The position numbers and the translations under genes are program-made. The notes beneath the pieces are model-generated. The model was not told the origin of the DNA, made no database searches, and saw only the letters and a list, made by a program, of their open reading frames with translations. 64,000 nucleotides of DNA. Origin: a virus. Below, piece by piece: positions 6,901 to 62,965 of this stretch. The stretch is taken from positions 1-64,000 of IMG/VR virus record IMGVR_UViG_3300033816_000195, one strand, 5' to 3'. The number at the start of each line of letters is the position of its first letter. The stretch's first letter is position 1.

Positions 6901-7436
6901 TCTGCTTTACTTATTTCATCTAGTATAGAATACCCATTAATAAAATCATTTATAGCAGATAATTTTCCTATTACTTCTTTAGGGTCTAGAGTTTCTTTAT
7001 TTTTTAAAAGATAAGCCATTTCTAAAGATGCCTTTCTGGATTTTTCATAAGCATCATCTACAAATAAGTAAATAGATTTAACACCTTCTGCAACCTTTAC
7101 TTCTTCAATAAGATCTCTAAGTTTTTTCTTTTTATATTCTTTATTAGTAATGACTTTATTTTGGAGAGTAGCATATTGTTTTTCAAGATATAATATCACA
7201 CTATCAACTAAGTTACCAAAATCTCTAGGGTCTGATTCTTCTTCATCAGTTTTTGCAGTTTCAGCTTCTTCAGCAAAGTCTTCTGTTTCATCTGAAAATG
7301 TAAGTGTATCTGGAGTACCATCATCTAGAAGATCTTGTTCTAACAACCAAGCTTCAAATGCAGCTGATTCATTACCATTAGCTTCTGCTAAAAGTCTTTT
7401 CCAATCTTCACTATCTTTATTAGGGCAGGCTAACAT
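3984..7436 (-). CDS. large virion cargo/ejection protein
   Basis: 1150 aa and mostly helical in character. Has an N-terminal CPN motif and a hydrophobic segment (IILTTVALIMLI) near the C-terminus. Overlaps the stop of the vRNAP gene. Confidence 0.7.
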   Translation of the reverse strand: MLACPNKDSEDWKRLLAEANGNESAAFEAWLLEQDLLDDGTPDTLTFSDETEDFAEEAETAKTDEEESDPRDFGNLVDSVILYLEKQYATLQNKVITNKEYKKKKLRDLIEEVKVAEGVKSIYLFVDDAYEKSRKASLEMAYLLKNKETLDPKEVIGKLSAINDFINGYSILDEISKADIDNYFTADSITNRVPGQPLTPQQKIIEIKGIHETIKQKVLTEGIPLIADFLLEYKGPDITNRLESDITVLDQRISDIENSNLSDEKKAKRIAELEERKEKFKSFNLDREGLIKMLKVANKDEDVFDFLVGPLISSHDASLGLFAKAIKGGLEEARLKDIVMERTVAETFEDYLRTQSNRDNPAKFNEGIYETIEIPIKNKDGETEYIKTYAFVQKYDVTKFNKARNQMLEAIGEEPVLSDKPTFEEKQALKAWRSQRAAWYKKNTQAKPISEINKIIEEKQLELSKRIITDDEYSDWLKSVKHERNGVVTYMRELSEPSNDYLNANWTALYNLDGTPKNAKGEYHKKMLDIYLEAQEKLPEVQRRGYILPSVVKTDGERLQQEGIIKTVKTKAREAVKMQAYDTEYGLAGLGITEAKFIPVYYTQIMPTEDMSLNIARSVMLFNSMANRYEALNKINSEISLFQTVIGDRQVLKTNSLGKPVLDAFAKKLGYEEYIKKNGESYSQKHVDAFIDMVVYGEMQKSEQLFGLQIDKIVNNLMGYSAITSIAADLLKGVANNMQANIQVMIEANAGEFFNKKNLMKGKAYYTKSVPGFISDFSKSAPTNLATKLFDYYDAIQGNFKDQYGRNITGSMANKLFSTNTLFFNQFFGEHEVQGSTMFALMDATKVLDNENGEIITLLQAHEKYGVELDGKIKILQVDVNQEPIKDDAGEYIAFNYDEKQRLNFQSRLHALNKRMHGVYNEFDKGTAQRGALGRLLLMYKKHLVPAYKKRWKKLGMDQELGAPTEGYYMTFYKTFVRDLRDYKFNIMKNWASYSPFEKAQIRRVIAEATIILTTVALIMLIRSMMGTGDDDDKLTESQKAARDNYLYNFVLYEAVRMRSETSSYINPIDAYRVVKSPSAMTGTLERAIKFTDQFVFTWNPEKLSYQKDTGVWNKGDNKSWAYFLKLMGFSGYNFTPGEAVKSFESTFFN

Positions 7437-10400
7437 AATTTTTTAAGTATTTCAGTTTCTATTTTTAACAAATCTTCTTGTGTTTTAGCTTTTTGTAAAT
7501 TTAATAATACATCATTAGCATCTATACCTTTTTCAGCTAAAATTTCATCTATAGGCATAGTATTACGTAAATTCACAAACTGATCTATTAAAGCTTTTCT
7601 TTTACTTTCATCTACAGGAGTAGTAGTTGATTGTTCAACTAGACCAGATTCCATATTTACATTTCTTAATAGTATAGTATTTTCATCTACAAGATCATAT
7701 AAGTTTCTAGAATTTTTAATCCAAGTTCTTGTACCAGTAGGTAAACTTACAATAAATTTATTTGGTAATACTCCATCATTATCAGTTAATGCTGCTTGGA
7801 ATACTTTCATATCTTCTTCTTGTATTGTAGGTGTTTTTGTTGGTTCTCCTGGTTTAACTTCTCCTACTGGTTCTACAGTAGGTTGAGTAGGTTTACTTCT
7901 AAGTTGTTCAACCACTTCTGCTAAAGCTGTAGGATGCATACCTTGACCTCTAGCTTCTAATTTACCAGCATATAATAATGTAGCTCCATCAAGTTTACCT
8001 TGATTAATTTGATTAAGTATCCAAGCTCTTTGGTTATCAAATTTAGCTAAGTCACTAACACTTCCTTCTAAAATTTCTGATTCAGTTACAGCATTGTTTA
8101 ATAACCAATCCTTATACATTCTAACAGCTGCACCTATACTAGCTACTTTTATAGTATTACCATAGCCTGCTTCACTAAAAGGATTACCAAAATGTTCATT
8201 AGGTTTAGCAGATTCAGTACGCATTGTATTAACTCCTTCTGCAGTATATACAAGTCTTGTTTTTAAATCTCCTGACCACTCTCTACTTAAATCTATTGTA
8301 GGTTTAACACTAGTAGATGGTTGAGTAGTAGCCTTAAATGTATTTTCATATACATCTCTAATAGCTTGTTTACCTGCTTCATTTATTTCTCTAGTTCCTA
8401 TACCTGCAAAGTTTTTAGTAAGAGTTGGAACTTCAGACTTAGACCATTCACCATTGATATTTTTATACCATTGATTTCTTACTTGGTCAAATACATATAC
8501 AGGTTTACCGGCTTGTATAGCCATTTCTACTGCGTAACCTGTTCCCCCCTGTACTGCAAATTTAAGAAGCTTTCTTGGTTCTGCAGATTTCTCATCTCCT
8601 TTCCAAATGTCACCTTCTTTACCTAATGTACCAATAGCAAACACAGTATCTGAATTAGCAACCTGAGCCCAATTTCTAATTAGTCTCTGGTCTTTCATTG
8701 TGTTGTATTTATAACCCCACATTTCTTTTGCAGCCTGAGCAACTTTACTTGCTCCTTCTACAGCTATTGGATTATTTGTAATGTCTACATTTCCTAATGG
8801 TGCATTCTTTGGTCCTTTTTCTCCGGTGAAGTAATGTTTGTTATTTACCATACCAAACTCTTTACCTATAACATCCCACTGAGTATCTGATCCAATTGCT
8901 CCACCTGAGTGATTAGTATATTCAGCTGGATTATTTGCTGTTACTGTAGATTGAGTAGAAAGTTTAGCTGGTGTTTTAGGCATTCCAGAAGTCAAATCAG
9001 CCGCTCTTCTAAATGTAAGAGTAATAGTATAATTAGTAATTACTCTACCGTCTGAAAGTTTAATAGGTGGAAAAGGATTCTTCTTTATATTTCCTAATGG
9101 TGTTGTGTGAGAGAGAGCAAATCTTCCTTTACCTTCCATACCAAATGTATATATAGTACCATCTTTAGTAGGGATTTCATTTGTAGGATTTCTACCTTGA
9201 TAGTCTTGTTTATATGCTCCTTGGAATGTTATTTTACCTTTATTATCATCCCAAATACCAAGACCTGAATCATTACCTATTGTATATACAATAACAGGAT
9301 AACCTTCAGCAGATTTAGCTTCTGTTGTATCTCTATGTGGAGCTATACTTTGATTATCTAAATATATATTTCCTAACATTGAATCATAATTAGACATATC
9401 AATACCTAAAGCATTTTGTATTTTATCAATAAGTGGTTGTAATTCTGATAAAGATGGAAGTGTATTACCATCCTGATCAAGTTCATGATAGTCATAAATA
9501 AACTTTGTTTTATCTGTATTTTTTCCTGCTTTCTTTAAAGCTTCTATTTGAGCTTTTGTTTTACTAATACCTGCAAAAGAATCTATAACTAAAGGATTTG
9601 CTTTAAGATTAACTCTTGACCACATATTTCCAAAACTAAACTGCCAGTTAGCATTACCACCTACGTTTTCTTTATAAGCTTGTTTTTCAATTTGAGGAGC
9701 AATTAAATTAATAATCTGTTGTGTATCAGATTCTGTAGGATTAGTTTCAGCTTTAACTACTCCATAATCTGGAGAGATAACTTGAACATTAGTATTTACA
9801 GGAGCTCCTGTAGGTTTAACAGAAGATTTAGGATATACCTCATCAGCTAATAACATCTTTTTACCAGTTGCTAAGTCTACATTTTGTATGTAAACTTCTT
9901 TTGTGGCATTATCTATCATATCATAATAACCATATGAGTTTAGATTCCACTGTGCACTTTCAGGCATAGTTTGTCTTTTACCCGTTACATTATTATAAAA
10001 TTCTGTAAATAAAGTTTTTGGAGTAAAGAATACTTTAGGTTTAATGTTATTACTCTTACTTAAGTATGTGTTATAAGAAGCAACGTCTTCTGCAGACATA
10101 ATAACAGGACCCTCTGATAAACCAGTTAATAAATCAAATGATTCTATAAATTCATCTTTTACTTCTTTAGCATGAGAACCTTTTAAAGGAACAGAATAGT
10201 TCTTGAACATTTCTTCACTTACAACAGTATCATATATTCTATTTAAAATTTTATTTGTATCCTCTGCAGATATAAAATAATTTTTAAAGAAATCATTTAC
10301 TGAACTACGCATTAATTCTTGATACTGTTCAGGATCTAAAGCTTTTGTAAATCCAAATTTAGTAGGCCCAACACCATGCTGATAAAACATCATTAATGAG

Positions 10401-13400
10401 AACTGATTAAATAAGTCTGATATTCTTTTATTTAATTCTGGATCATCAACTTTTTTAATAGTAACATCTCCTAAATTACGCAAGTTAGAGTAATATATTT
10501 CTGCTAACTGTCCTTTTACAAGCTTCTTATTATTTAATTGTAGAAGTTTTACATTAGCTCTTCTTGTTTCAGCAGGTGCAATCTGTGATAATATAGGGTA
10601 TTCTGATTTTACTTTATCTGATAAACCTCTTATAAGATCAAGTATAGTATCTGAATAACTATATTTAGTAGAGCCCATTATATAAGCTTTATTATAACTA
10701 CTTCTTAAAGCTCTTTCAGATAACCATGCTTCATATGCATCTTCAGGAATATTACCTAGTGTACTTAAAAACTCTTTATATGCTAAATCATTTTCTAAGG
10801 ATTCAATAGGATTTTTAACTCTTAACGCCTCTCTTTCTAAAACATATTTATAGTAACTATTTAAATTTAAGAAAGGATTTTGATTAGGTTTAAATACATC
10901 TAGACCTTGTTCTGCATAATTTCTAGCAGTAGTATTTCCTTCTAAAAATACTTTATTATTAAAGTCATCTTCAATAGCTTTTGTATTTACAATCATTACA
11001 CCATTTTCTACAATAGCATCAAAGTCTGCATTATCATCTATTAAAGTAGGAAAGCCTCCAACTTCAGGGCCTACATTAACTAATTTACCATCTTCATTTT
11101 GAAAATTAGAAATATAGTTTTGATATATAAAGTTAATTACACCATTATTATAAGCTTTAGTAAAGTTTTCTTGTCCCTTTATACCTGTTCCAAATTTTGA
11201 TTTTATAAGTCTTCTTTCCTGAACTATTTTATCTGATATAAAAGTACTGATGTCAGCATTTAATCTTAAAGGAAATAATGGTAATATTAAATCTAATATT
11301 AAATCATCTATATTAAATGAAGATACTACAGAGTCTTTAGTTAATCTTTCAAAGGTTCCATTGTCTATTTTACTAGACTGAGTAAGCATTTTATAATTAC
11401 TTTTTCTTTGTCTTACTTGTTGAGTTGTAGTTAATGTTGAAGTATCTGGAGCAAAAGACTGTTGTAAGTTATCCATTCCTTCAAATTGTTTTTCTAACTC
11501 AATAAAGTTCATGAATAAGGCAAGTGATTTTAAACTTGAACCATCATTTGTTGATATACCATCATATAAAGTTTCTAACTTAATATCACCTGCTGGTAAA
11601 TAAGTTTTTGATAAAACTTCTGTTGTAAAAGGAATTGTTGAATTATCTAATAAATCTCCTACCTCACTAGCAGATTTATATAGTATTTTATTATACTTAT
11701 CTTCTGATTGATTATAAAGAAATATCTTATCTACCTCAGTTATTTTTTTAGAGTTTAACTCATTTGCTAAATCATTTATTGATAGCAATCTTCCTTTATT
11801 TGCATTAGGGGTTATAACAAATACATTTTGATCTTCTAACTTTCTAACTGTATTAATAGCAGCTCTTAGTTTTTCACGGTTTACCTTATTTAGTAAATCA
11901 GTTTTTTGTCCATCATTTAATGTATCTAATATAGGTATTGCAATATCATATAGGGCTGTACTCTTAACCTTAGAAGCTTTTTGACCATTTATAATAGTAT
12001 AGTATGCACTATTCATTAATCTTTGGTCTTCCATGTATTTTTTAATCAAAGGTTGATTAACAAACATGAATACTTCTTCTTCATTTACTCCTGCTTGTAT
12101 TAAGTAACTAATTACATTAATACCTTCTGGAGTCATCTGTAGATCAAAAGGAAAAGGATTTTTTGCTCTATCTAATATACCATTAAGATTATGTGAGTTT
12201 AAGTCAGTAATTCTACTACCTTTTTGTGTTTTTTCTCCGGATAATGAAATTACTAATTCACCCTTTTCATTTTTAACTACATTATGTAAAAATCTCATTA
12301 CTAAAGGTAGCTCCAATGGTTTTATAATTAACTCACCTGTATCTAAATTAAAGAACTCATCTTTATATGTATTAGGCATTTTAGCTCCAATAGTTTTAAA
12401 TATAGTATGGTTCTTTGTTATTTTAGCTTGTATACCTAATGAAGGCTCTAAAGATAAATTAGCAGCATGTTTATACAAGTTATAGGTTGCCTCTAATAAT
12501 CTTGTAGGACTTATAACTGTTTTTCTTTTTCCATCTTTATCAGGAGCTGATTTATTAGGCTCAATATTTCCTGGGTTTTTATATCTATCATAACCACTTC
12601 TTGTTTTCTCTAAATACGGTATATATTTATCTACCAAGTGAGTCAAGTTTGGTGTAACTAGATATGCATAGTTTTCAGGAAGAGCTAACAAAGATGTATG
12701 AGTTTCAATATATTTATTTTGTAAATATCTTTTCTGTTGCTCTATTAATTGTTCAGAACTTATTTCAGGAAGTTTTTCAAAATCTTCTTTAGTTAATCTT
12801 TTATTAGAAGCTTTCTTTTCCTCAAACTGTTTCTCAAGTTCTTGAGCTTTCTTTAATTTATTTTCAAAATCAGGAATTCCTTTACTAATGTAATTACCAT
12901 CTTTATCAATGTTAGCCATTGCAAAGAAAAGTTTATCACCATCAAAGTCAGAACCAGCTTTAGCAACTATTTCTGTAGGAACAATAACAGTATTACCAAA
13001 TGCAGGATCTACAAAATGCCATACTTCAGCACCTTCTATAGTATTTGTAGCATCATTTGGAATTCTTGGTCCACCTATAGTAATTGCTTTTCTATTATTA
13101 CCTGTATTCAACCATTCCTCATCTTTGATAAGCTCATTAAGTCTTTCAATGGTACCTATTTTTTGACCTTTATATACTTGGTTTAAAAGATTATTATAAG
13201 AACCTTGTAAACTAATTGCTACTTTCATCATTTTTGTAGCTGCTCTTTCACCAGTTTCTTTATTTATAATCTCTCCTCTTAAATAAAAAGGTAGAGTGTT
13301 AGATCCTAATAATTTTTTTCTTTCTTCTGGATCGGTTACATTACTAAATTGTGTGTCCCACCAACCATTTGTAAATGATGTAGGTGCTTGTACCAGTGGT

Positions 13401-16400
13401 TCACCATTAGTGGTTTGTTTAATTAGTCTTTTTTGGATTACACTCATTAACAACTGCTCAATATCCTGAGACTCAGGATGAATAGAAAGGTCCATTGTTA
13501 ACTGACCGTCATCAGTTGTATTTACTAACTTAACTAAGTGATTAGGTACATCTTTTGCTGATAATTCTTCTCTTATGAATTCAACAAAGTTTTTAAGATT
13601 ACCTTCATATCTTTTAGTTTTTTCATTATACACATAACCTATTTCATTTAATAGATCTGATTGTAATAACTTTGTGTAATCTTTAATGGTATTTAAATAA
13701 CTATCTATTATTTGTTGATTATTTTTATTTTTTATCTCACCATTTTCAAACAAGTTATCTAAAATAATAGCTCTTGTTTGTGTAGCTATTGGAAGCTTGC
13801 CTTTAAATTCATCATTAATTACAGTAACTTCTTTTAAATTAGCTAAGTAAATTGGATTTAATGTAAATTCTACATCATCAGAGATAGCTTTTTGTTGATC
13901 TGAAGCAAATATATTATCTAGTTTACCTGTAGAAGTTAAGTTAGCAGCTTTAGATCCAGAACCAAATGTAACATATTGTACATTTTCTCTAAGCATTTTT
14001 TTATGAAGTTTATCTAATTGAGAACCTTCTTTAGCATTAACACCTGGAATTAAAGGCATAACAGAAAACTTATGCATTGCTGTAGTAGCAATTAAGTCAT
14101 TCTTTAGTGCACCAAAATAATGTAATTTATAAATAGGAAAGTACTGAGCAGCCTCAGCTTGAGTAACTTTTTCACCATTTATAATCTTTTGATATAAGTT
14201 CTCTTGAGCTATAGACCATCCTCTACCTGTTTTATGTAAAGCTCTATATGCATCTATTGTCATATAAGCCATACCATCACCTTCAGTCATTTTCTCAAAT
14301 GCTTCAGCATTTAGTTTTGTAAAATACTCTGCAGTTTCATTATCATATGTTTTAGAAAACTCTTCTTTCCAGGCAGCTTTCATATCATCTAGATATATAC
14401 TTTTTCTTTCTATATCTTGAATAACAGCAGTATTTAATATGTCTGAAAAAACATAATTGTCATAGTTTATTTCACCATTAGTTTTTGCAGTCTCTATTGC
14501 AGCATAGGTTCTTAGCTTTTTTACATTTTGACCTGACTCATTTTCAGTTTCATAAGGTGCATTAAATGTATTATTAATAAAATCTTGAGTGCCTTGATCA
14601 TATAAGAAACCTGTACCATCTGATGTAGCTCCTGGAATCCTTTTAGACCAATCTTCTTTTGCATGATCCCATTGAGCAAAATCACCAAACATTATTATAG
14701 ATGTTTCAAACTTATGTATCCAATCATTATAAGCATATGCTTTAATAATATTATCTGTTATAGTCTTATTATTTCTTATTGCTTTAAGTTCTTCTGATGT
14801 AGGTGACTCAGAAAGTTTAACACCAGCTTTTCTTAAAAGAGACTCAGATAAATAAGGAACATCTTGATAGTAAGTTTTAGAATAATTAGAAACTAATTCA
14901 TTAAAATAATTTTTAAAATCATTAGATACTAGACGTGCTAACTCTCTATCAGTTTTTAATGAAGTTCTTAAATTAACATTTATATTTTCTTCAATAAGAT
15001 TATATAATTTTGTTTTAGTCTCCCGGCTCAGTACAGTATCAAATGCACTGAATACTTCTCCGGCATAAATCTTTTTACCATTAACTTCATCTACTACTCT
15101 ATTATAACCTGTAATTTTTAAAAGCTCATTTCTTTGTGATCCTTTAAACTTTTTTATTCTATCAAACTCTCCTTCTAAGTAACCAGAAAGATATTCAACT
15201 ATAGCATAATTTTCTCCCTTGTTACCCTCAAAGAACATATTGATATCTACATACAAGTTTTTATCAGCACCCTTCTCAAGAACTAATCCATTTTCTATTC
15301 CACCTATAACTCTAAAACCTTGTGAAAACTTTTTCTCAGAAATACGCGGTAGTTCTGCCCAGCCTGCAAGAAGCATACTATGAATCTCTTGTAGAAACTT
15401 GGATTTATCATCTAGTTCAGTAGTAGTATTACCTAGATCATCATTTATATTAGTACCATCTACAGCAATAGCTTCAATATATCTACCTTTTTTTCTATCA
15501 CCATTTTCTTGATATCTATCAAATATACTATTCAGTATTTTTAAATGTCTAGTATAAGTATTTATAGTAGGGTCAAGATAACTCATATAAGAATACTGTT
15601 TATCTTGCCATAGATCTGTTATTTTTTCTACATTGTTAAGAGCATCTAATCTAGCAGAATAGGTACTATAGTTTATGTCTTCATATCCTGTATTACCATT
15701 AGATCTAATTACACCAGCTGTAGCTGAATCATATCCATATTTACCTTGTAATTCAGCAAGTCTTCTTAACTGAGTATTCTCATTAAAGTCCTCTTTTATT
15801 ATTCCTGTAAATACATCTTTTGGTACAGTTGTTTTTAAAGTCTCAAGTGGGTTTAATCTAAATTTATCTAAATATTCTTTTTGAAGTGGAGTTAATGTTT
15901 CACCTGCTTGTTCAAGTAACTGTAGTTCATTAAACTCTATTACAGCATCAAATATATAAGGTAAACCATAGTAATCAGAGTTTTTATCAAGTTCAGAAAT
16001 TATATTTTTGTTTGTATCTAAACCAATACCTATAGCTTGAGCAAACTCTAAAGATTTAGATTTTTTTAAGTTCCCGCTTTTTTCTTTAAACTCAGATACA
16101 ATTGCATTTAAATTTAAAGAAGAAACATTATTTGCACTCTTATTTATATATGGAGTTTTAGGAGAACTCTTAAATTCAGAAATCCATCTACCCTGTATAG
16201 AACTAATAGATAAAGAAGCTTGTACAGATTGTAAATCAAACTCACCATTATCATTTAGTGTAGCAAACAATTGCATGTATTTAACTTTAGCTTTACCAAA
16301 GTCTTGTAAGAATTGTCTACTTATATCAAATTCATAAGTGTTTCTTGTATTTGGTTCAGGATATTTACTTTCAATTAATTGTTTAATTTCCGGAAACTTT

Positions 16401-19400
16401 TCTGCTTCTCTAACAAGAGCATCATAAGCTTTTTGTCTATCTCTTATACCACCAATAGTTTTTGCTACAATATTAAATATCTTAGAAAAATCAGCTCTTT
16501 GTTTAAATCCAAATCTATCTACAGGAGTTTTTCCTTGAGAATCTACTTTAAACAAACTCTTTAATATATAAGCTGTTTCTTTACTCATTAATTGTTGTAG
16601 AGAAACCTTACCCTTTAACTCATCATTATTTATTTCTTCTTGTCTTGTAACACCTTTACCAACTTTTGTTGAGTCAATTGCATTATCCTCACCATCTAGT
16701 ATTTCTGTATAATCTGTTTCATACTTTTTCTTTGCTACTTCATAGTCTGTATTTTCTAAATAGTATTTAATAACACCAGTTTTATTATCTCCCCAGTTAC
16801 TAAGAGCTAATTGTAGTATTCTAATATTATCTAGTATCAGAGCTTGATCATCAGATAAATTTAAATTAGGCTGTAAAGCTTTTTGATTAAGTTCAAATCC
16901 TGTATAAGCTTTTGCCTTACCTTCTACATAGTTATTATATTGTACTTCAGCATCCTCTAAATTAGATACTACAATTATATCTACAGGTTTACCATTCTCA
17001 TTTTTAATTTCTTTATGCTTATAAAAATCAGAAACAATTTTTATAGTACCTGCATATGATTCACCTTTTACTCTTTCACCTTTCTTTAAAGAAGGATCAA
17101 GTTTAGAAAAATCTAAAATTTGAGAAGCTAAGAATACATATTTATGATCACCTTTTTTATTAGTTAATTTGGCAGATGCATAATCTTTTATATTCTGTAA
17201 AGTAGATAACCCATTAAAATCAAAATCTGGTTTTAATTTATTTAGTTTATCTTTTTCTGTTTTAAGTTTATTTTCTAAAACTTCTCTAACATTATTTAAA
17301 AGAATTTCTCTTCTTTGAGTTTCAACAAGAGTAGCGATAGTGATAGCTTTAGCTCCAGGAACATTTTTATATTTCTGATATCTCTCATCTATAATTTCTG
17401 CAATTATAGAATCTATTGTAGACACTAACTGTGTACTATCTTGTTTACTAAGTATATCTTCTCTAGGATTTTCTACATTCCTTACACCTCTGTCTAAAGA
17501 GAATAGTTGAGCATTGGATATAAGTGGCGTATAACTATTTAAATTACCAACTCTCAAATTGTTAAACAATTCTTTTGCCATTGGTGAATTTAATGCATCT
17601 ATAGTAACATCTTTTTTGTTAAACTTCTTAAGAATTTTACCTAATAAAGCTTTTAAAAAATTTAATATTTGTCTAAATAAAGTATTTTTAACCGGAGTTT
17701 TAGTTTCAGGTTTTTCAGTCTTCATGTAGTTTCTGAAATCTTCTGCTAACTTTTCTTCTAATTGTCTTATCTTTGCTGTAGAGTAGCTATAGGTTTCTCC
17801 ATTTTCTAAAGTGAAGGTTCCCTTTAAAGATCTCATCTCATTATATAGATCAGTCTTTTGTTGAGGAGTTAAGAATAATTGTGAGAAAGCATGCCATGCC
17901 TCATGATATATTGTTAGATTTTGGAATATACTACCTTTCTGAACATTATAATTTATCTTACCAAGTCTATCTGGATTTGCTAAAGTTCCCGCACTTACAA
18001 TAAAAGTAGCATATACATCTGAATTTACTATATTCATTATAGGATTCAAGTCTATTGCATCTCTCATGGCTTTCATTCCAGGACTATTCCACCAATCAAT
18101 AGACTGTTTTATTTTCTTTGCACTTATTTTTTCATCTAAGTTTTTTCCTTTTCTAAATAATCCATCTATTAAATCATCAGGTTTATTAGAGTTAGTTGGA
18201 TTATTATGAGGCTGAGGAGCTTCTGGCTGAACAATATTTTGTATTATATCAGTACCATTTTTAATTTCAGCACCATCAACTTTATTATCTATAATGCTAT
18301 TTATATAATTAATTTGTTTTTGTGAAAAGTAATTTATTAAACTGTCAAGTACTTCTCTAGCAAATTCTTTAGTGTACTCGGGATTATTTTTTATTTCATT
18401 TACTAATAGTTTAGTTAAATGAAATGGTTCATTTCCCAAAATACCTTGACGAGCCATCTGATCAGTATATTCTGGTGAAGTTATTATATTATATAATCTT
18501 GTTGCTTCTATATCAGCTGCAGTAGTAGTATTTACAGGTATGAATTCATCATCAACAGGTTCTTGTGTTTGTTCATCTGTAACTATATTAGAAATTGCAG
18601 GACCTGTAGGAGCATTAAACTGTAATGAATAGTTAAAGAATCCTGGGTTATTTTCTATGAGTGAAATATTAGGATTTTGAGCAAGTATTAAATCATAATA
18701 ACTTTTTCTTTCAAATGTTTTACCACCTTTATAAACTCTATATGAGTTATTTCTTAGTGCATCATTATCATAACTTATAAAAGTATGATACCCTTTATAA
18801 CCTTTAGTTAAAGCATTAAATAAATCTTCAGAAGCTTTTGCTGTATTTTCATTATTTAGATTAGTATTAGATAGATTATATTTAGCTATTTGGTTTATTA
18901 GGTTAGGTTTCTCATATATATTTAAGAACAATGAGTTTTTTTCAAAATTATATGTTATGTCAAAATTTCTAACACTTTTTGTCATTCCTATAGGAATGAA
19001 CTGTTTAATAAAATCATATTTTTCTTGAACGGTTAATTCTGAATTTATAATGATTTCTGAAATTTGTTTTGCTATATCATTATTTATTCTCATCCTATCA
19101 ATAGGAAACTGTTCACCATTTATTCTTATGGTTCCTCCACCTTGCTTTACAATACCATTTTCTTTTGATTCAGTTTCAATTGTTTCTATAATTTTTTTAG
19201 ACTGATTAGGAAATGTTATTAAGTTTTCTAGAGATATAGTTGTAGCAGAATCTAGAGTAGTTACACCATTAGTCATTCCTGTAATAGGTAATAAGTAGGC
19301 AGCATCTGAAGGCTTTCTTCTTAAAGCAGCATCTTGTATTTTTTTAAGAGTTGCTAAGTCTTCCTCTTGTTCTTTTATTATTGAATCTAAGTAAACTTGT

Positions 19401-20392
19401 TTATCTCCAAATTCTTCTTTATAAGTACTTCTAGCAATTTCTTTTGGTGTAAGAATAGCATTCTCATTACTATAAATATTAGTAGTTACAAGTTTATTCT
19501 CAACTACTCTTACTGGTCTTAAGAATTGGTAAACAATTTTACCTTCATTTTCATTAGAAATATTACCGGCATCATCAAAGTAAAGTTGATTTCCTGCTTC
19601 ATCAGATAATATTAATACAACTCTTTCATTAATTTTTAAAACTCCTTCAGGTGTTTTAGCACCAATTGATCTAGCTTTTATAATTTCATCTTGAGTTGTT
19701 TCATCAAATAATGCTTGTCTATTTCCAGTAGCAAAATCATTTAAATTATAAGCTCTAAAGAATAGTTTTTTACCTTGATACATTACACCATCTGTAATAC
19801 TTTGATTGTTCATACTATTGCTTATAGAAGCCATTGTATTAACAATATGTATTTTATTTGGATCTATTCTTTCTACAACAAGTTCTTTAGAATTTTTTGC
19901 AGAAGGTTTTATTTTAACATATGATTGACCTGTACCTGTTAAAGGACTAAATGTTCTAAATCTTCTTGAAGGTATAACTGGTTCATTAATTACTGTTTCT
20001 TTTATTTCAATCTCATTTTCAGATATATCATCTGTATTTATACTAGCATTAATTTCATCAGCATTTACAGGCTTGTCAAATTGTTTTAGTACATTATTAA
20101 TACCATCTTCTGATCTAAAAGATACGTTTAATTCTTTTAATTTATTTACATCAATATTAATATTACTTTCAAAAAAATATGAAGTATATACACTTGATAT
20201 TAATTTAGGTAATGATGCAATGTATTTTGCTGCAGCTTCTGGTGAACCATTAGCTTTAAGTTCATTATAAAAATTTTGCATGAACTCATTTGGATCAAAA
20301 CTTCCTTTTTTTTCTGCCTCTTTTAAATTTGCAACAACATATGAATAAAGTGATTTTATTATCTCTGGATCATTTATAGCACATTGGATCAT
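7430..20392 (-). CDS. giant virion-packaged two-barrel RNA polymerase polyprotein (zincin domain + RNAP + AlkB-like, SLOG-like and DUF4326-like C-terminal domains)
   Basis: Catalytic GSDFDGDK at 12935-12949, preceded by RIP. Also DWSKR, EGDGMAY and HKFS-type motifs like crAss-family vRNAPs. HEAWH at 17891-17905. HRD…H…R motif near 9000-9340. Confidence 0.88.
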   Translation of the reverse strand: MIQCAINDPEIIKSLYSYVVANLKEAEKKGSFDPNEFMQNFYNELKANGSPEAAAKYIASLPKLISSVYTSYFFESNINIDVNKLKELNVSFRSEDGINNVLKQFDKPVNADEINASINTDDISENEIEIKETVINEPVIPSRRFRTFSPLTGTGQSYVKIKPSAKNSKELVVERIDPNKIHIVNTMASISNSMNNQSITDGVMYQGKKLFFRAYNLNDFATGNRQALFDETTQDEIIKARSIGAKTPEGVLKINERVVLILSDEAGNQLYFDDAGNISNENEGKIVYQFLRPVRVVENKLVTTNIYSNENAILTPKEIARSTYKEEFGDKQVYLDSIIKEQEEDLATLKKIQDAALRRKPSDAAYLLPITGMTNGVTTLDSATTISLENLITFPNQSKKIIETIETESKENGIVKQGGGTIRINGEQFPIDRMRINNDIAKQISEIIINSELTVQEKYDFIKQFIPIGMTKSVRNFDITYNFEKNSLFLNIYEKPNLINQIAKYNLSNTNLNNENTAKASEDLFNALTKGYKGYHTFISYDNDALRNNSYRVYKGGKTFERKSYYDLILAQNPNISLIENNPGFFNYSLQFNAPTGPAISNIVTDEQTQEPVDDEFIPVNTTTAADIEATRLYNIITSPEYTDQMARQGILGNEPFHLTKLLVNEIKNNPEYTKEFAREVLDSLINYFSQKQINYINSIIDNKVDGAEIKNGTDIIQNIVQPEAPQPHNNPTNSNKPDDLIDGLFRKGKNLDEKISAKKIKQSIDWWNSPGMKAMRDAIDLNPIMNIVNSDVYATFIVSAGTLANPDRLGKINYNVQKGSIFQNLTIYHEAWHAFSQLFLTPQQKTDLYNEMRSLKGTFTLENGETYSYSTAKIRQLEEKLAEDFRNYMKTEKPETKTPVKNTLFRQILNFLKALLGKILKKFNKKDVTIDALNSPMAKELFNNLRVGNLNSYTPLISNAQLFSLDRGVRNVENPREDILSKQDSTQLVSTIDSIIAEIIDERYQKYKNVPGAKAITIATLVETQRREILLNNVREVLENKLKTEKDKLNKLKPDFDFNGLSTLQNIKDYASAKLTNKKGDHKYVFLASQILDFSKLDPSLKKGERVKGESYAGTIKIVSDFYKHKEIKNENGKPVDIIVVSNLEDAEVQYNNYVEGKAKAYTGFELNQKALQPNLNLSDDQALILDNIRILQLALSNWGDNKTGVIKYYLENTDYEVAKKKYETDYTEILDGEDNAIDSTKVGKGVTRQEEINNDELKGKVSLQQLMSKETAYILKSLFKVDSQGKTPVDRFGFKQRADFSKIFNIVAKTIGGIRDRQKAYDALVREAEKFPEIKQLIESKYPEPNTRNTYEFDISRQFLQDFGKAKVKYMQLFATLNDNGEFDLQSVQASLSISSIQGRWISEFKSSPKTPYINKSANNVSSLNLNAIVSEFKEKSGNLKKSKSLEFAQAIGIGLDTNKNIISELDKNSDYYGLPYIFDAVIEFNELQLLEQAGETLTPLQKEYLDKFRLNPLETLKTTVPKDVFTGIIKEDFNENTQLRRLAELQGKYGYDSATAGVIRSNGNTGYEDINYSTYSARLDALNNVEKITDLWQDKQYSYMSYLDPTINTYTRHLKILNSIFDRYQENGDRKKGRYIEAIAVDGTNINDDLGNTTTELDDKSKFLQEIHSMLLAGWAELPRISEKKFSQGFRVIGGIENGLVLEKGADKNLYVDINMFFEGNKGENYAIVEYLSGYLEGEFDRIKKFKGSQRNELLKITGYNRVVDEVNGKKIYAGEVFSAFDTVLSRETKTKLYNLIEENINVNLRTSLKTDRELARLVSNDFKNYFNELVSNYSKTYYQDVPYLSESLLRKAGVKLSESPTSEELKAIRNNKTITDNIIKAYAYNDWIHKFETSIIMFGDFAQWDHAKEDWSKRIPGATSDGTGFLYDQGTQDFINNTFNAPYETENESGQNVKKLRTYAAIETAKTNGEINYDNYVFSDILNTAVIQDIERKSIYLDDMKAAWKEEFSKTYDNETAEYFTKLNAEAFEKMTEGDGMAYMTIDAYRALHKTGRGWSIAQENLYQKIINGEKVTQAEAAQYFPIYKLHYFGALKNDLIATTAMHKFSVMPLIPGVNAKEGSQLDKLHKKMLRENVQYVTFGSGSKAANLTSTGKLDNIFASDQQKAISDDVEFTLNPIYLANLKEVTVINDEFKGKLPIATQTRAIILDNLFENGEIKNKNNQQIIDSYLNTIKDYTKLLQSDLLNEIGYVYNEKTKRYEGNLKNFVEFIREELSAKDVPNHLVKLVNTTDDGQLTMDLSIHPESQDIEQLLMSVIQKRLIKQTTNGEPLVQAPTSFTNGWWDTQFSNVTDPEERKKLLGSNTLPFYLRGEIINKETGERAATKMMKVAISLQGSYNNLLNQVYKGQKIGTIERLNELIKDEEWLNTGNNRKAITIGGPRIPNDATNTIEGAEVWHFVDPAFGNTVIVPTEIVAKAGSDFDGDKLFFAMANIDKDGNYISKGIPDFENKLKKAQELEKQFEEKKASNKRLTKEDFEKLPEISSEQLIEQQKRYLQNKYIETHTSLLALPENYAYLVTPNLTHLVDKYIPYLEKTRSGYDRYKNPGNIEPNKSAPDKDGKRKTVISPTRLLEATYNLYKHAANLSLEPSLGIQAKITKNHTIFKTIGAKMPNTYKDEFFNLDTGELIIKPLELPLVMRFLHNVVKNEKGELVISLSGEKTQKGSRITDLNSHNLNGILDRAKNPFPFDLQMTPEGINVISYLIQAGVNEEEVFMFVNQPLIKKYMEDQRLMNSAYYTIINGQKASKVKSTALYDIAIPILDTLNDGQKTDLLNKVNREKLRAAINTVRKLEDQNVFVITPNANKGRLLSINDLANELNSKKITEVDKIFLYNQSEDKYNKILYKSASEVGDLLDNSTIPFTTEVLSKTYLPAGDIKLETLYDGISTNDGSSLKSLALFMNFIELEKQFEGMDNLQQSFAPDTSTLTTTQQVRQRKSNYKMLTQSSKIDNGTFERLTKDSVVSSFNIDDLILDLILPLFPLRLNADISTFISDKIVQERRLIKSKFGTGIKGQENFTKAYNNGVINFIYQNYISNFQNEDGKLVNVGPEVGGFPTLIDDNADFDAIVENGVMIVNTKAIEDDFNNKVFLEGNTTARNYAEQGLDVFKPNQNPFLNLNSYYKYVLEREALRVKNPIESLENDLAYKEFLSTLGNIPEDAYEAWLSERALRSSYNKAYIMGSTKYSYSDTILDLIRGLSDKVKSEYPILSQIAPAETRRANVKLLQLNNKKLVKGQLAEIYYSNLRNLGDVTIKKVDDPELNKRISDLFNQFSLMMFYQHGVGPTKFGFTKALDPEQYQELMRSSVNDFFKNYFISAEDTNKILNRIYDTVVSEEMFKNYSVPLKGSHAKEVKDEFIESFDLLTGLSEGPVIMSAEDVASYNTYLSKSNNIKPKVFFTPKTLFTEFYNNVTGKRQTMPESAQWNLNSYGYYDMIDNATKEVYIQNVDLATGKKMLLADEVYPKSSVKPTGAPVNTNVQVISPDYGVVKAETNPTESDTQQIINLIAPQIEKQAYKENVGGNANWQFSFGNMWSRVNLKANPLVIDSFAGISKTKAQIEALKKAGKNTDKTKFIYDYHELDQDGNTLPSLSELQPLIDKIQNALGIDMSNYDSMLGNIYLDNQSIAPHRDTTEAKSAEGYPVIVYTIGNDSGLGIWDDNKGKITFQGAYKQDYQGRNPTNEIPTKDGTIYTFGMEGKGRFALSHTTPLGNIKKNPFPPIKLSDGRVITNYTITLTFRRAADLTSGMPKTPAKLSTQSTVTANNPAEYTNHSGGAIGSDTQWDVIGKEFGMVNNKHYFTGEKGPKNAPLGNVDITNNPIAVEGASKVAQAAKEMWGYKYNTMKDQRLIRNWAQVANSDTVFAIGTLGKEGDIWKGDEKSAEPRKLLKFAVQGGTGYAVEMAIQAGKPVYVFDQVRNQWYKNINGEWSKSEVPTLTKNFAGIGTREINEAGKQAIRDVYENTFKATTQPSTSVKPTIDLSREWSGDLKTRLVYTAEGVNTMRTESAKPNEHFGNPFSEAGYGNTIKVASIGAAVRMYKDWLLNNAVTESEILEGSVSDLAKFDNQRAWILNQINQGKLDGATLLYAGKLEARGQGMHPTALAEVVEQLRSKPTQPTVEPVGEVKPGEPTKTPTIQEEDMKVFQAALTDNDGVLPNKFIVSLPTGTRTWIKNSRNLYDLVDENTILLRNVNMESGLVEQSTTTPVDESKRKALIDQFVNLRNTMPIDEILAEKGIDANDVLLNLQKAKTQEDLLKIETEILKKLC

Positions 20393-23300
20393 TACTGACA
20401 GTTTTTAAATTTATTAATTAAATCATTCTTTATATCCTCTACATTTGTTTCCATACCAATATTGTAAGCTTCTTGTTTAGCTTCATCAGATGCAAGGAAA
20501 ACATCTTGAGCATCAAAAGTTTCTTCTAAAATTTCTTTTTCAGCAGGAGATGTTGTATATGTTGTTTGTTTATCAGAAACATTATTTAACTCTGATTCTT
20601 TAACAAAATTATTTGAGAATTCATTTGGAGAGACTACCATTTCTTTTGCATTTTTTCTAGGTGTATTTTGTTTAGTAGCTAATTTTAACACAATGTTTCC
20701 ATTTTCTAATATCTCTGTTACCACCATTTTAGGGTTACCATCCTTATTAAGATAATAAATATCATTTACTTTTACAACACTTTCTCCATCTATTGTGGAA
20801 TCTATTGGATCAGCAAAAATATCTACTACATCAACAAAGCCTGAATCTAATCTAAAGTTAGCATTAAAATCTTTAACATCTTTAAGTTGACCTTGTATTT
20901 TTTGTATAACATTATCTTTTAAATACCTGTTACTTAATTGCTGTTCTAGACTACTTTGTAATGTATCTAAACTATTTACAGCATCTTGTATTTCTTGAGG
21001 TGTTGTAGCCTGAGAGGCATTAACAAATGTTTCTAAGATAGCTTTATCTTGAGCATTAGTATTATTTAAACTAATTAAACTAAAGACATCTCTTTGATAA
21101 TCTGAAAATGCTCTAGCAGCAACATCACTGGTTGTATTAACTTTTAAATACTGTATTCTTTTAACTGCTTCATGTATTATTTCAGATACTTCTTCTCTAT
21201 TAGGATTACCATTTTGTACAAGATCTATTTCTTCTGGAGTCAACACTCCTGTAGATAATGCGTCAATTGCTAGTAATTGTCCAGGAGTTGGAGCATAAGA
21301 AACTTTTCCAACAAATCTATCTTTGTGTACTTTAAATACATTAGCAAAAGCTTCATCTTTTTCTAGTTGTTGTTGTACAAAGTCAGAGTTTTCAGATAGG
21401 TCTATACTATCAAAGTTCTGAGTAATATTGAATTTACTAAGTCTTTCTTGAATAGTTTCTATTTGAGAGTCAATCTTCTTAGTACTATTTTCATATTTTT
21501 TAGTAAGAGTATTTAATTTATCTTTAGGTGATACAGTTTTAGATACACCAGATAAATCTATCATTTCTTCAACATACTCACCTGTTGCATCCTTATATCT
21601 TGTGATTGGGAAAAGAGTATTCATCTCATCTCTTACACTAGCAATATAAAGAGGAATCAGCATTTCTGAAACTTGTGCTGAATCTTCTATTTCAAACTCT
21701 TTAATACCAATAGAATTTTTTGATATTTTACCATCAGGGGTTCTTCTATAAATTAAAGGTTGATATATACCTTGAGCTGTAGGTTTTCCTGCAGTTAAAA
21801 TTTTTCCAGTTTGCGGATCAGAACTTCTTTGAACAGGTAATAAAGATATACTAGCATCAACACCAATCATTCTTTTTAATAAGGTTGCATAAGTAGCTTG
21901 TTGTAAAGTATAGTTTTCTCTTTTAGAATATATACCATCATCTTTTGTGGTGGCTGTTTTTTTAGTCTTTTTAATTCTATTAAACTTCAACCACTTATCT
22001 TCATTTCCTGTTTTAATATCTATGATATGTATTTTACCTTTTCTATCTACTGCTATTAAGTCAATTTCCCCGGCAATCCTATCTGTAGTACCATCTAGCT
22101 TTTCTATATTAGAATCATATACTACTAATCCTTTAGCTACTATATAAAGTTCACCATTATCAATTCTTCTTTTTATTTGGGTAAGGTGCCCATCTGGTCC
22201 AAATAAATCTAAGTAAGCTTTTTTAGTAATTTTATTAGGATCAAACTCCGGCATTTTACCTTCACCCAAGAAATCTTTTGCAGCTTGATCTACATAATTA
22301 CCAGCTTCTCTACCATCTTCATATGTTTTTTCTGATACAAACTTATATATCTTATTATATAAATCTTCATTGCTTATGTTTACAGGTTGAGTACTAGTAG
22401 TTTGTTCTGCAGTAGTAAGTCCTTTAGATTTATCATAGAGTTCTTTACTAGCCCAAATAGTTTTAGTAGCTTCATCAAAATATTCATCTTGTCTAAGATC
22501 TTTACCCCAAGTATCTTTTACTCTTTGTATTTCTTGATCATATGCTTCAGGTGTACTACTTCTTTGTTTGTCTTTTTCTAAAACATCAATCGTATTCTGA
22601 AGAGTACGTGGACTATACCATAAAAGATCTTGTTGTTTAAATTTATTTGCAATCTCTATAGACTTTCTTTGAGCTTGTTCAGGAGTAAGATTTATACCCA
22701 GTACTATACGCGCTCCTTTAACAGGACTATATTCATTATCTGATTCTTTAAGTTCATCAGCTATTTTTCTATTTTCTTCAGATAAACTATCAATTGCTAT
22801 TTCAATATAATCTTTTCCTCTTGAAGCTTCACCCTGTACAGAGTTTAACCAAGAACCCGTAGTTTTAATATTCTTATCCCAGAAAATTTCTGAAGCTGGT
22901 ACTAATGGTCCTGCTACAACATCTGCTATATTTTCTTTTTTAGAAATAGGTACAGCAAAAGTTCGAAAACCTGTTCTAGGTGCTTCAGTACTTACTGGAG
23001 CTTCTTCTAAAGCAGTTGGTTCTGAATCATATTTAGCGTTGATTTCATCAATTACTTGGTCTTTAGTGTATTCATTTTGAAACAATTCATAGTTGGTAAA
23101 TTTAGTTGCTTGACTACTAAATTGCCCTATATATTCCCAAGTCTTTCCACCATTGTACCCCTCTTTAATAGAAGCTATAGTTTCTTCCTTTTTTCTTTCT
23201 ATATCAGCTTTAGTATCTGTAGTAGTAGAGACAGGAGTTGTAGTTGGTTGTAAAATATTAGTTAATTCATCTGCTAGTTCTTCATATAATACATCTCTAA

Positions 23301-61348: not shown

Positions 61349-62965
61349 TTAGAATGAACCACCAGTGATTGGGTTTCTCATAACAATCTTAAGGACTTTA
61401 GTTGGATCCTTAACCCAGATAGCTGGCATTGTTTGAGACATCATTACACGGTATCCATTGAACTGACCAGAAGATTGGAACCCTTGAGTTCTTCCCATGT
61501 AGTCCATAGTACCATTTTGATACCACCACTTCAACTGATTATCCCAAGATAATTTTAACATGTAAATATTATCATTAGTATTATCAGTGATATCAAAGAT
61601 AATAAATGAGTAAGAAGATAATGGGAAACCATCAATGATTGGGTTCTCAATATCATTTGTATGAACATTGTCAAATGCTGGGTTAAGAACAAACTTAACA
61701 TTTGCCAAGAATGGAATTACATATGAAGTATAAGCAAATCCAAAGTTCAAGTCCATACCTTTACCAGTAATTGCACCAATGTCAGCAGCTTGGATAAGAA
61801 GACCAGAAGAAATAGCTTCTCTTTTGATAGCTTCATTTACCATACGCATACCACCCATACCAGTTTGAACTACTAGAGATCTTTTTGGATCTGGACCTTG
61901 GAACTCAACTTTACCATTAAAGAAGTTGTAGATTTCTCCACGGAACAAATCAAGTGTAAAGTTATTTTTGTTATATACTCTTTTGAAAGAGTTATCTAAC
62001 TGTTTCCAAAGACCCACAGATAATCTAACATCATCTGGACCATCTTGACGCACTCTACCACCATGTCCCCACATTAAGTAAGTCTCAATGTCAGAAGCAA
62101 CTTTGCTCAAGTGAGCAGCTTCCATTGTAGTTAAGAATGTTCTAGAAAGATCACCATTATCAAATGCTCTTTTAACTTTATCTTTACCAAGTTTCTTAAT
62201 CATATCATCTAATGATGTGATTGAAGGATCCATAGTTTTATCAAAAGTTCTCCAGATCTCAGTTACAGGAACTGTACCATCTGCATTCATTCCACCTTTA
62301 ATCATCAAGTCTGCACGTGATGAGATAGAATAATGTACGTGAGCTTCAGCACCTCCTACAAAGTTGTAGAATTCACGGAAACCTGCATTAGTGATGATGT
62401 CAGAAAATCTTTCACCATACTCACCTCTAGCAGAACCTTTACGGAATACTTTAGTACCATTTGATAAATACTTATTCTCAAGATATTTATAATTGTCATT
62501 GTTTACAAGTTGTACAGTATAGATGAATCCATCACCAATTGGTAAGATATCTTCATTTGTAATGTACATCTCAACACCATTATACTTATCATAAGTAATG
62601 ATATCACCATGACCAAATTCTCTTTTGCTGATTTTGATACGGAAAGTACCACCATCTACACCTTTGAACTCATTGTCTGGTTCAATGTCTTCAATAATGT
62701 AAGGAAGATCTACAGATACAGGAGTCTGCCATCTGTACTCTCCACGAGCATTATCTACCATAATTACATTTTTACCACCAAAGCTAGACATTTGGTAAAG
62801 AGGCATTTCAACCTTCTGAGCCATAGCCCAAAGGTCCACTGGACCTAGATCCATTGGTTCTGCATCCTTTAACATGTTAACCAAGTGGTAAGAGTCTACG
62901 TGTGAACTTGCCGCATAGGCTGTATCCCGTAGAAAGATACCATTGTTTAAAACTGGAGTTGCCAT
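61349..62965 (-). CDS. major capsid protein (crAss-like, HK97 fold)
   Basis: 538 aa with high-expression codon bias (TTC/AAC/TAC/CGT). Motifs LMWG, GLWKQL, TGMGG and IWVKDPT. Lies between the scaffold-like gene and a terminator. Confidence 0.85.
   Translation of the reverse strand: MATPVLNNGIFLRDTAYAASSHVDSYHLVNMLKDAEPMDLGPVDLWAMAQKVEMPLYQMSSFGGKNVIMVDNARGEYRWQTPVSVDLPYIIEDIEPDNEFKGVDGGTFRIKISKREFGHGDIITYDKYNGVEMYITNEDILPIGDGFIYTVQLVNNDNYKYLENKYLSNGTKVFRKGSARGEYGERFSDIITNAGFREFYNFVGGAEAHVHYSISSRADLMIKGGMNADGTVPVTEIWRTFDKTMDPSITSLDDMIKKLGKDKVKRAFDNGDLSRTFLTTMEAAHLSKVASDIETYLMWGHGGRVRQDGPDDVRLSVGLWKQLDNSFKRVYNKNNFTLDLFRGEIYNFFNGKVEFQGPDPKRSLVVQTGMGGMRMVNEAIKREAISSGLLIQAADIGAITGKGMDLNFGFAYTSYVIPFLANVKFVLNPAFDNVHTNDIENPIIDGFPLSSYSFIIFDITDNTNDNIYMLKLSWDNQLKWWYQNGTMDYMGRTQGFQSSGQFNGYRVMMSQTMPAIWVKDPTKVLKIVMRNPITGGSF

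Follow-up and report, generated by a model that had tools for sequence, protein, structure and literature searches.

How can a phage keep several unrelated enzymes inside the gene of its RNA polymerase (RNAP) and change them without losing the reading frame? This question is raised by a single open reading frame (ORF) encoding 4320 amino acids (aa) in the first 64,000 nucleotides (nt) of the IMG/VR virus record IMGVR_UViG_3300033816_000195, a stretch that is referred to throughout as the window. Besides a zincin motif and an RNAP motif, the ORF encodes three enzyme cassettes, a pair of anchor domains and a tail; its C-terminal end is ordered as anchor A, AlkB-like cassette, SLOG cassette, DUF4326-like cassette, anchor B and tail, with linkers between the units (Table 1). 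An original prediction, made from the sequence alone, had described the three cassettes, their linkers and the two bracketing domains, and read them as a hotspot where injected effector domains are shuffled in frame through microhomology of their linkers. The observation was confirmed here and the interpretation is largely supported. The last ~890 residues probably form a cassette array in the style of polyvalent proteins, which lies between the anchors and would change by crossovers at linkers and end repeats, be packaged and ejected, and act early in infection.

Arrays and cassettes are replaced between close relatives

Seven relatives of the core are present in IMG/VR. In three of these (L003, L004 and L005) the DNA is 98% identical to the window up to position 9813, inside the linker PKSSVKP, after which a 136-residue module without known identity (M1) stands in place of the AlkB-like unit. 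Homology returns for the SLOG cassette only (8937-8319, 90.5%), stops right after ACT ACT CAA CC, and gives way to one or two ART-PolyVal-type modules before the relatives match the window again from 7832, where anchor B starts, and stay ~97-98% identical through the compared part. L006, whose core DNA is 82-85% identical, breaks at 9812 and 7832, and its outer points are those of L003-L005; its array has an AlkB and a DUF4326-like unit that differ from those of the window (27% and 35% identical), along with a NADAR cassette. L003 and L005 are 99.2% identical and differ by an in-frame ART module of 1137 nt, and the pair of ART modules in L003 is flanked by CAA CCT ACT GTA (GAA) CCA GTA. The array is a recombination hotspot, and change takes two forms: an entire array is substituted from anchor to anchor, with the two outer breakpoints fixed, or an individual cassette is acquired, dropped or swapped, in frame, at short linkers rich in T, Q and P. 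It had been expected that relatives would differ in domain content with breakpoints at the linkers, and this is what was found among relatives with 98% identical flanks, whose domain sets were not identical.

Contigs of four further lake and sediment runs were also compared, with uncovered parts not counted as absence; two of the runs (X4 and X7) offered short contigs only. Two runs contain all sampled words of the window array. The long contigs of run X5 cover the core, anchor A and the AlkB-like unit to 9010 and match the window again from 7889, but do not follow it in between. The cassette variants that had been anticipated in metagenomic reads are represented by a contig of run X3, from another lake study, which lacks the 438-nt DUF4326-like unit and joins 7880 to 8319 at 10 letters common to both sides, although this joint is one contig at depth 2.9 with a shorter side of 28 nt, and it is the L003-type arrangement and no proof of a fresh deletion. 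In the window, the direct repeat CTACTCAACC brackets the DUF4326-like unit.

Since all sequences are metagenomic and the repeats are short, the mosaicism might be thought an assembly artefact, in which chimeric contigs were joined at those repeats. Odd joins do occur: X3 and X4 contigs join 6611 to 9743 (with 35 other letters between) and 10254 to 6611, no repeat of at least 11 nt was found behind either, and these contigs may be chimeric. However, the contigs of L003, L004 and L005 agree in arrangement as far as the point where L005 stops or differs, the two runs noted above hold the complete set of sampled words, every array is a single open frame of 2863-5262 codons, and the cassette families recur in hundreds of proteins. 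Given the matching arrangements of the three relatives, the open frames and the recurrent families, the chimeric reading was rejected as very improbable.

Cassettes have spread between distant polymerases

Cassettes have moved horizontally between very distant polymerases. Copies that are 76-96% identical are found in proteins with a core of 23-54% identity or without a core match. Among copies at least 75% identical to those of the window, all seven AlkB copies sit in proteins with cores at or below 36% or unmatched (copies 79-94%, cores 26-36% or unmatched), as do 19 of 22 SLOG copies with cores at or below 54% or unmatched, and all 11 DUF4326-like copies with cores at or below 43% (copies 76-88%, cores 23-43%). 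L009 has a core 33-35% identical to that of the window and a SLOG cassette 90% identical in protein and 86% in DNA, which stands beside NADAR, ART-PolyVal and AlkB. The reverse is seen in P0002, where the core is 78-86% identical, yet the AlkB and DUF4326-like cassettes are 32% and 34% identical.

Home-made hidden Markov models of 14 module types gave 81 module orders among 124 giant proteins, a set that is biased because each protein was found through a cassette common with the window and that includes many unannotated stretches. The orders include SLOG-DUF4326-AlkB and DUF4326-SLOG. The relatives' cassettes are recognizable in their own right, with ART-PolyVal in L009 at 31.7 bits (cut-off 31.2), NADAR at 53.5 (35.1) and AlkB at 87 bits; no Pfam match to ART-PolyVal was found in the window. 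SF1 helicase domains were detected by Pfam in many giant homologues. Cassette exchange explains the wide length differences among crAss-type polymerase genes.

The spread extends beyond crAss-type polymerases. A SLOG cassette of 43% identity lies in the virion RNAP of the N4-like Klebsiella phage Pylas (L001, 9001-9690), in the N-terminal third of the polymerase and between long T/Q/E/P-rich spacers, an Alteromonas phage has a further SLOG match within a feature annotated 'RNA polymerase', and a DUF4326-like relative (P0200) adjoins an N4 RNA polymerase helical domain. The presence of SLOG and DUF4326-like units on crAss-type and N4-type polymerases suggests convergent use of an injected polymerase as a delivery vehicle.

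Some further observations were made on the relatives' modules. The M1 cassette (L003, 11288-11695; ~136 aa) was seen in 20 proteins and another, L8a (L008, 10853-11350; ~166 aa), in 16, both without a Pfam match; L8a contains GLRTRTTR, which by eye recalls ASCH/PUA-like domains. In L032, L034-L043, L046, L047 and L050 the frame of the SLOG match is open for just 11-220 codons (translation table 11), and in these phages a stop codon is probably reassigned or the genes are split.

Linkers as DNA and as peptide

All peptide motifs quoted in the original prediction are present in the translation of the ORF at the given coordinates, among them NHSGGAIGSD (8885-8914), GGTGYAV (8528-8548) and FAGIGTR (8390-8410) of the SLOG unit and FGNPF (8177-8191) and YKDWL (8102-8116) of the DUF4326-like unit, and linker 4 begins with the peptide PTQPTV (7874-7891). 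The recurring DNA word likewise holds: GRTTGAGTAS occurs four times on the plus strand, at 7881, 8319, 8949 and 22385, against 0.43 expected and with 0 of 100 shuffles reaching four, for a degenerate pattern fitted post hoc. Read on the other strand, the word is xCT ACT CAA CCx, which encodes T-Q-P and is in frame at all four sites.

TQP was found in 39 of 171 junction windows (23%), 3 of 950 length-matched core windows (0.3%) and none of 279 module centres; with the relaxed pattern [ST]QP or QP[ST] the shares were 36% of junction windows and 1.7% of core windows. The threonine of TQP is encoded by ACT at 27 of 29 unique in-frame sites, which are not independent of one another, against a background of 52% (binomial 2.3e-6), whereas an invariant threonine inside SLOG is encoded by ACT in 18 of 35 cases (Fisher 2.8e-4 between the two). 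Phages with ~35% core identity have linker stretches of 32-45 nt in common, at 89-93% and in different positions, and linker 4 has a 45-nt match to the SLOG-ART linker of L003 and a 42-nt match to that of L009. The codons of the linker DNA ACT CAA CCx are more fixed than those of conserved residues within the cassettes. To put it cautiously, the breakpoints coincide with short repeats at the ends of cassettes, and ACT CAA CCx is the most frequent of these repeats.

A stronger reading is tentatively offered, in which the T-T-Q-P linker is a selected, codon-fixed joint for in-frame recombination, a protein-coding 'attachment site' common to several cargo genes of one phage, with at least the cassettes shared with the unrelated N4-type polymerases. 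If so, freshwater and other phages would draw from a common cassette pool that is re-dealt within a single ORF.

The linkers may instead matter as peptide, either as flexible spacers or as cleavage sites at which the zincin-type protease would release each enzyme once packaging or ejection is over, with recombination occurring anywhere and only the breakpoints between domains surviving; the recurring word would then reflect selection on the peptide, preferred codons and common descent. This fits the fact that linkers are richer in T, Q, P, S and V than modules and core, that an HExxH motif is present, that ACT, CAA, CCT and CCA are the commonest codons anyway, and that the STSVKPT part of linker 3 always accompanies DUF4326-like cassettes, like a part of the cassette. 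Fused polyproteins of this kind are also expected to be cleaved, according to the available text of Drobysheva et al. (2020 preprint). However, the excess of ACT over that at the SLOG threonine, the long linker matches across ~35% cores in differing positional contexts, and the exact 10-nt direct repeats around a cassette that is absent in other phages speak against this reading, and we regard it as rather unlikely.

Anchor domains and a cysteine-ended tail

The original prediction proposed that the array is bracketed by two diverged copies of one domain, and these are indeed homologous. The copies were located at 9863-10093 and 7643-7819. Anchor A matches anchor B in BLASTP at E 1e-4 over 29 aa, and in hhalign, with profiles from 11 two-copy proteins, at 99.1% probability and E 1.2e-18 over 66 columns. 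A tree of 35 anchor copies, from which P0004, L003 and L009 were left out as near-duplicates, splits into A and B with support 99/98. The first clade holds 10 of 10 A copies, every one of the 7 single copies located ahead of an array, and 2 located ahead of a tail; the second holds 10 of 10 B copies and 6 single pre-tail copies. The anchor duplication is thus old, and core-A-array-B-tail is a conserved architecture.

A large protein collection yielded 308 giant homologues matching the C-terminal region, of which the best 120 were analysed. A cysteine lies within the last 6 residues in 114 of these 120. In the window, the 4320-aa protein has cysteine at residues 4 and 4320 only, so none of its three enzyme cassettes contains one; the 2241-aa protein upstream has its only cysteine at 2240 and the 1150-aa protein downstream at 4, and a 1077-aa protein has none (cysteine codons at 7433-7435, 20381-20383, 20398-20400 and 7425-7427). 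A conserved tail ending in cysteine would account for the entry of cassettes before the tail instead of at the extreme C-terminus.

Table 1. Features of the giant ORF and of neighbouring genes, in window coordinates.
Feature	Position	Strand	Basis
Giant ORF, 4320 aa, crAss-type virion RNAP polyprotein with C-terminal cassette array	7430..20392	-	
HEAWH (aa 830-834), zincin-type HExxH as in the phi14:2 gp65-like part	17891..17905	-	motif search
DFDGD (aa 2482-2486), DFDxD catalytic motif of crAss-type virion RNAP	12935..12949	-	motif search
Anchor domain, A-type copy (aa 3434-3520)	9833..10093	-	hhalign A against B; 99% identical in L003-L005
Linker 1 PKSSVKPT, left edge of variable array	9809..9832	-	DNA homology ends at 9813 (L003/L004/L005) and 9812 (L006)
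AlkB-like 2-oxoglutarate (2OG)-Fe(II) dioxygenase cassette (aa 3529-3811)	8960..9808	-	PF13532 below cut-off; invariant HxD...H...R
Linker 2 STQSTV	8942..8959	-	contains DNA word 8949-8958
SLOG cassette, probably of circularly permuted YpsA type (aa 3818-4021)	8330..8941	-	PHROG 768, cpYpsA in relatives, AF2 and Foldseek
Linker 3 TTQPSTSVKPT	8297..8329	-	contains DNA word 8319-8328; L003 homology stops after ACT ACT CAA CC
DUF4326-like cassette (aa 4033-4167)	7892..8296	-	ESM Atlas, BFVD, sub-cut-off PF14216 in relatives
Linker 4 PTQPTVEPVGEVKPGEPTKTPTIQ	7820..7891	-	contains DNA word 7881-7890; has the leader preceding ART cassettes in relatives
Anchor domain, B-type copy (aa 4192-4255)	7628..7819	-	hhalign, tree; L003 and L006 homology resumes at 7832
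Conserved C-terminal tail (aa 4256-4320), Cys at end	7433..7627	-	95% identical in L003, L004, L006
Variable module (~aa 1309-1567) of neighbouring 2241-aa cargo protein	22417..23193	-	unmatched between conserved flanks
Major head protein gene	61349-62965	- (same strand as giant ORF)	PHROG 11589, E 6.6e-30

Identity of the three cassettes

The AlkB-like assignment is sound, with Pfam 2OG-FeII_Oxy_2 (PF13532) at 26.9 bits, below the cut-off of 31.2, and H3686-x-D3688, H3762 and R3795 invariant in an alignment of 60 of 60 homologous cassettes. We take H3686, D3688 and H3762 to be the iron triad and R3795 the 2-oxoglutarate ligand, as in E. coli AlkB. The relatives' AlkB cassettes score 87, 49.2 and 41.9 bits and are only 25-27% identical to that of the window. 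An NCBIfam search gave sub-threshold noise only (alkb, E 0.04), and a PDB sequence search with the AlkB and SLOG units gave chance matches only.

The SLOG-like assignment also stands, with circularly permuted YpsA as the probable family. The unit matches PHROG 768 (DprA-like) at E 1.4e-4, and Pfam cpYpsA (PF12694, circularly permutated YpsA SLOG) matches 4 of 21 relatives, with a best E of 0.0012. An AlphaFold (AF2) model with a predicted local distance difference test (pLDDT) score of 94.7 has 3imk as its top PDB match in Foldseek (E 0.083, probability 0.84, template modelling scores 0.45/0.56), an entry that is presumably the structural representative of PF12694. In the cpYpsA family the first strand of the Rossmann-like fold is moved to the C-terminus; the AGIGxR strand (AGIGTR in the window) is C-terminal in the window SLOG and N-terminal in that of L008, as judged by alignment.

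The DUF4326-like label is probable and not established. It draws on ESM Atlas, where DUF4326 clusters are neighbours of the unit at 0.85-0.87 with 182-190 shared features, on BFVD, where DUF4326 proteins hold ranks 1, 3, 21 and 39, yet at E 0.8-4.4, and on a profile search that found 417 representative proteins, mostly giants, in which 3 of 10 small relatives match PF14216 at 19-22 bits against a cut-off of 25; one of these three also has an N4 RNA polymerase helical domain. What the label lacks is a Pfam match, which was found on the unit of neither the window nor L006. The AlphaFold model (pLDDT 82) had no Foldseek match in the PDB at E < 1, and the profile gave E above 1 against PDB sequences. 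Stand-alone homologues were limited to nine short proteins on contigs of 627-8766 nt, which are probably fragments, and no free-standing reservoir was seen among them. A possible kinship of the unit with NADAR was unsupported (hhalign < 50%), and hhalign among nine cassette families joined no pair at 50% or above, ART and ART2 included. Within the unit, an indel-rich variable loop was noted at 8033-8122 (aa 4091-4120): an alignment of DUF4326-like cassettes shows three length classes there, and L020 matches the flanks at 94.6% and 89% but not the loop itself. In L029/L030 (4009-4758) a single 776-nt match of 68.8% runs across SLOG and the start of the DUF4326-like unit; the two thus stay adjacent in a distant phage, which fits the association described by Iyer et al. 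(2022, PMC9503650).

The proposed mechanism and its rivals

In the mechanism favoured here, short common linker DNA and other repeated cassette ends would serve as crossover sites. The array would be packaged and ejected with the polymerase, by analogy with phi14:2 (Drobysheva et al., 2020 preprint), the N-terminal zincin-type domain possibly cuts its units free, and they would act in the first minutes of infection. The AlkB-like unit may remove alkyl lesions from DNA or RNA, and the SLOG and DUF4326-like pair is predicted to process ADP-ribose-derived host signals, going by the available text of PMC9503650. The adjacency of this pair and the NADAR and ART cassettes of the relatives fit such signal processing. 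It is from homologues that we infer that the array consists of injected effectors, and the turnover at linkers points to a toolkit that changes fast and would be delivered as infection starts.

AlkB-type enzymes act in the repair of single-stranded nucleic acids. This counts for a different view of the cassettes, as service modules of the polymerase and not effectors directed at the host, in which AlkB cleans alkylated template or transcripts, a DprA-like SLOG holds single-stranded DNA, and the variation is neutral domain turnover. The PHROG name, a DprA-like recombination mediator, and the SF1 helicase domains of many homologues also agree with it. However, the pool holds ART-PolyVal and NADAR, which are tied to host conflict in the available texts of Iyer et al. 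(2017, PMC5512222; 2022, PMC9503650), and the horizontal spread of near-identical cassettes, together with their very high turnover, better fits an arms race than housekeeping, so that service to the polymerase appears improbable.

Several points weigh against the favoured mechanism. About three quarters of the junctions across the wider family have no TQP, the crossover between L003 and L005, the one very recent event seen, lies in the repeated DIxGFKxFV ends of two ART modules and not at TQP, and at the right border of the AlkB/M1 replacement there is no common linker, homology beginning at the SLOG N-terminus. Besides the mutual dependence of the TQP sites, the fixation of ACT could stem from common descent of linkers that travel with cassettes, and selection on foldable proteins would likewise leave breakpoints in linkers. 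The slender X3 joint belongs here too, as do the sub-cut-off Pfam score of the AlkB-like unit, the lack of a Pfam match on the SLOG unit of the window and on its DUF4326-like unit, and a phmmer search of the core (aa 1465-3431) against PDB sequences, which returned 0 matches. Of the proposed cassette-shuffling hotspot, exchange at linkers stands on L003-L006, whereas microhomology is one candidate driver, alongside selection on foldable products, with TQP at 39 of 171 junctions and another repeat used between L003 and L005.

The polymerase and its genomic setting

The carrier itself was placed by motif and distant similarity. DFDxD defines the virion-packaged RNAP of crAss-like phages, and some phages have it joined to a zincin-like protease protein in a single, probably cleaved polyprotein, as described in the available text of Drobysheva et al. 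(2020, 10.1101/2020.03.07.982082). A tblastn search with aa 1501-3401 matched solely giant proteins of crAss-like gut phages, weakly (22-26% identity). The kinship of the 4320-aa protein to known crAss-type polymerases thus appears distant, being read from the DFDxD motif and these matches. Pfam gave no match on the HEAWH region.

The source virus record is linear, 73.5 kb long and estimated to be 62% complete. The window has a G+C content of ~30%, and nearly all its large genes are on the minus strand. DNA of the window array was found in lake-water and freshwater-sediment metagenomes.

A second cargo gene, encoding the 2241-aa protein, carries the fourth DNA word (22385-22394), in frame within TTSTQPVN. 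This linker and QPTTTPVS bound a variable module, and the flanks (aa 1-1308/1322 and aa 1524/1568 onward) are 98% and 93% identical in G001 and 92% and 79% in G002. Between QPTT(T)PVS and (E)QTTS[TA]QPVN lies a segment of 215-260 residues without a match between the window and these two close relatives; exchange bounded by linkers thus extends to a second cargo gene. PHROGs gave no match on the 2241-aa protein. Its C-terminal third corresponds to 20392-22384, and past the variable module the homologue in L064 contains EIDLIAVDRKGKIHIIDIKTG, which resembles by eye a PD-(D/E)xK nuclease motif.

Comparison with known systems

Among known systems, the polyvalent proteins described by Iyer et al. 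(2017, PMC5512222) come closest, which are large multidomain proteins of 2-15 unrelated domains delivered with invading DNA; the available text also describes N4-type virion RNAPs fused to zincin peptidase, ART, lysozyme and RNase domains. Like these, the window has many domains in one ORF, and ART-PolyVal occurs in its relatives. Unlike the N4-type polymerases of that study, the carrier in the window is an unrelated crAss-type polymerase, presumably with two double-psi beta-barrels. Paralogous anchors delimit its array, and codon-fixed T-Q-P linkers connect the units. Recombinational variability is raised in the text of PMC5512222 for one kinase system, with only 'some diversity' given for N4-like RNAP modules, and AlkB, SLOG, NADAR, DUF4326 and 'linker' have 0 occurrences there. 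A DFDxD motif, a zincin-like partner and a huge single polyprotein are features that the window shares with gp65-gp66-gp67 of Cellulophaga phage phi14:2.

The gp66 protein of phi14:2 has ~2180 residues. The phi14:2-type polyprotein is packed in the virion and translocated into the cell according to the available text of Drobysheva et al. (2020, 10.1101/2020.03.07.982082), which, unlike what is seen in the window, describes no enzyme array for gp65-gp67. YpsA-like types predominate among viral SLOGs, which are predicted to degrade immune signals of the cyclic ADP-ribose type early in infection, and SLOG, DUF4326, NADAR and Macro domains form ADP-ribose-processing sets in viruses (Iyer et al., 2022, PMC9503650, as far as its available text goes). 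The window resembles these sets in that its SLOG adjoins a DUF4326-like unit and relatives add NADAR, but in PMC9503650 the domains are typically stand-alone proteins of DNA viruses and here they are cassettes inside a virion polymerase. The 4320-aa protein lacks internal cysteines, an unusual trait for a fold assigned in the same paper to the rhodanese-phosphatase superfamily. The text of PMC9503650 has 0 occurrences of 'crAss', Yutin et al. (2021), in its available text, speak only of 'large, multidomain proteins', and among the papers listed by full-text searches none pairs crAss-like phages or Crassvirales with AlkB or NADAR, and some pair a crAss term with ADP-ribosyltransferase; supplements (Yutin 2021, Iyer 2017/2022) and figures may list such architectures.

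In RefSeq, gp38 of cr113_1, a giant of 4328 aa with a SLOG cassette of 43% identity near its C-terminus, is called a 'DprA-like DNA recombination-mediator protein', and cr109_1 has the same kind of tblastn match and annotation. These giants are named after one cassette, while their modular array and its exchange are unannotated; a protein of 4300 residues should not take its name from one cassette. The arrays offer a catalogue of candidate early effectors, comprising AlkB-like, cpYpsA-SLOG, DUF4326-like, NADAR and ART cassettes and several modules without assignment, and because the linkers mark the cassette borders, each cassette can be excised and tested.

Polymorphic toxin loci combine a constant N-terminal carrier with swappable C-terminal tips that are exchanged by recombination. 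The window likewise has a constant N-terminal carrier and variable C-terminal modules, but these stand in tandem, lie internal to a conserved C-terminal anchor, and serve repair and nucleotide metabolism as enzymes instead of being toxins; beside the giant gene, no silent store of cassettes was seen. Such toxin loci are mentioned in the available text of PMC5512222. If the linkers are recombination joints, these phages re-deal their counter-defence enzymes of the first minutes while a 13-kb frame is never broken, and the logic would be comparable to that of integron cassettes or polymorphic toxin tips, but inside a polymerase gene.

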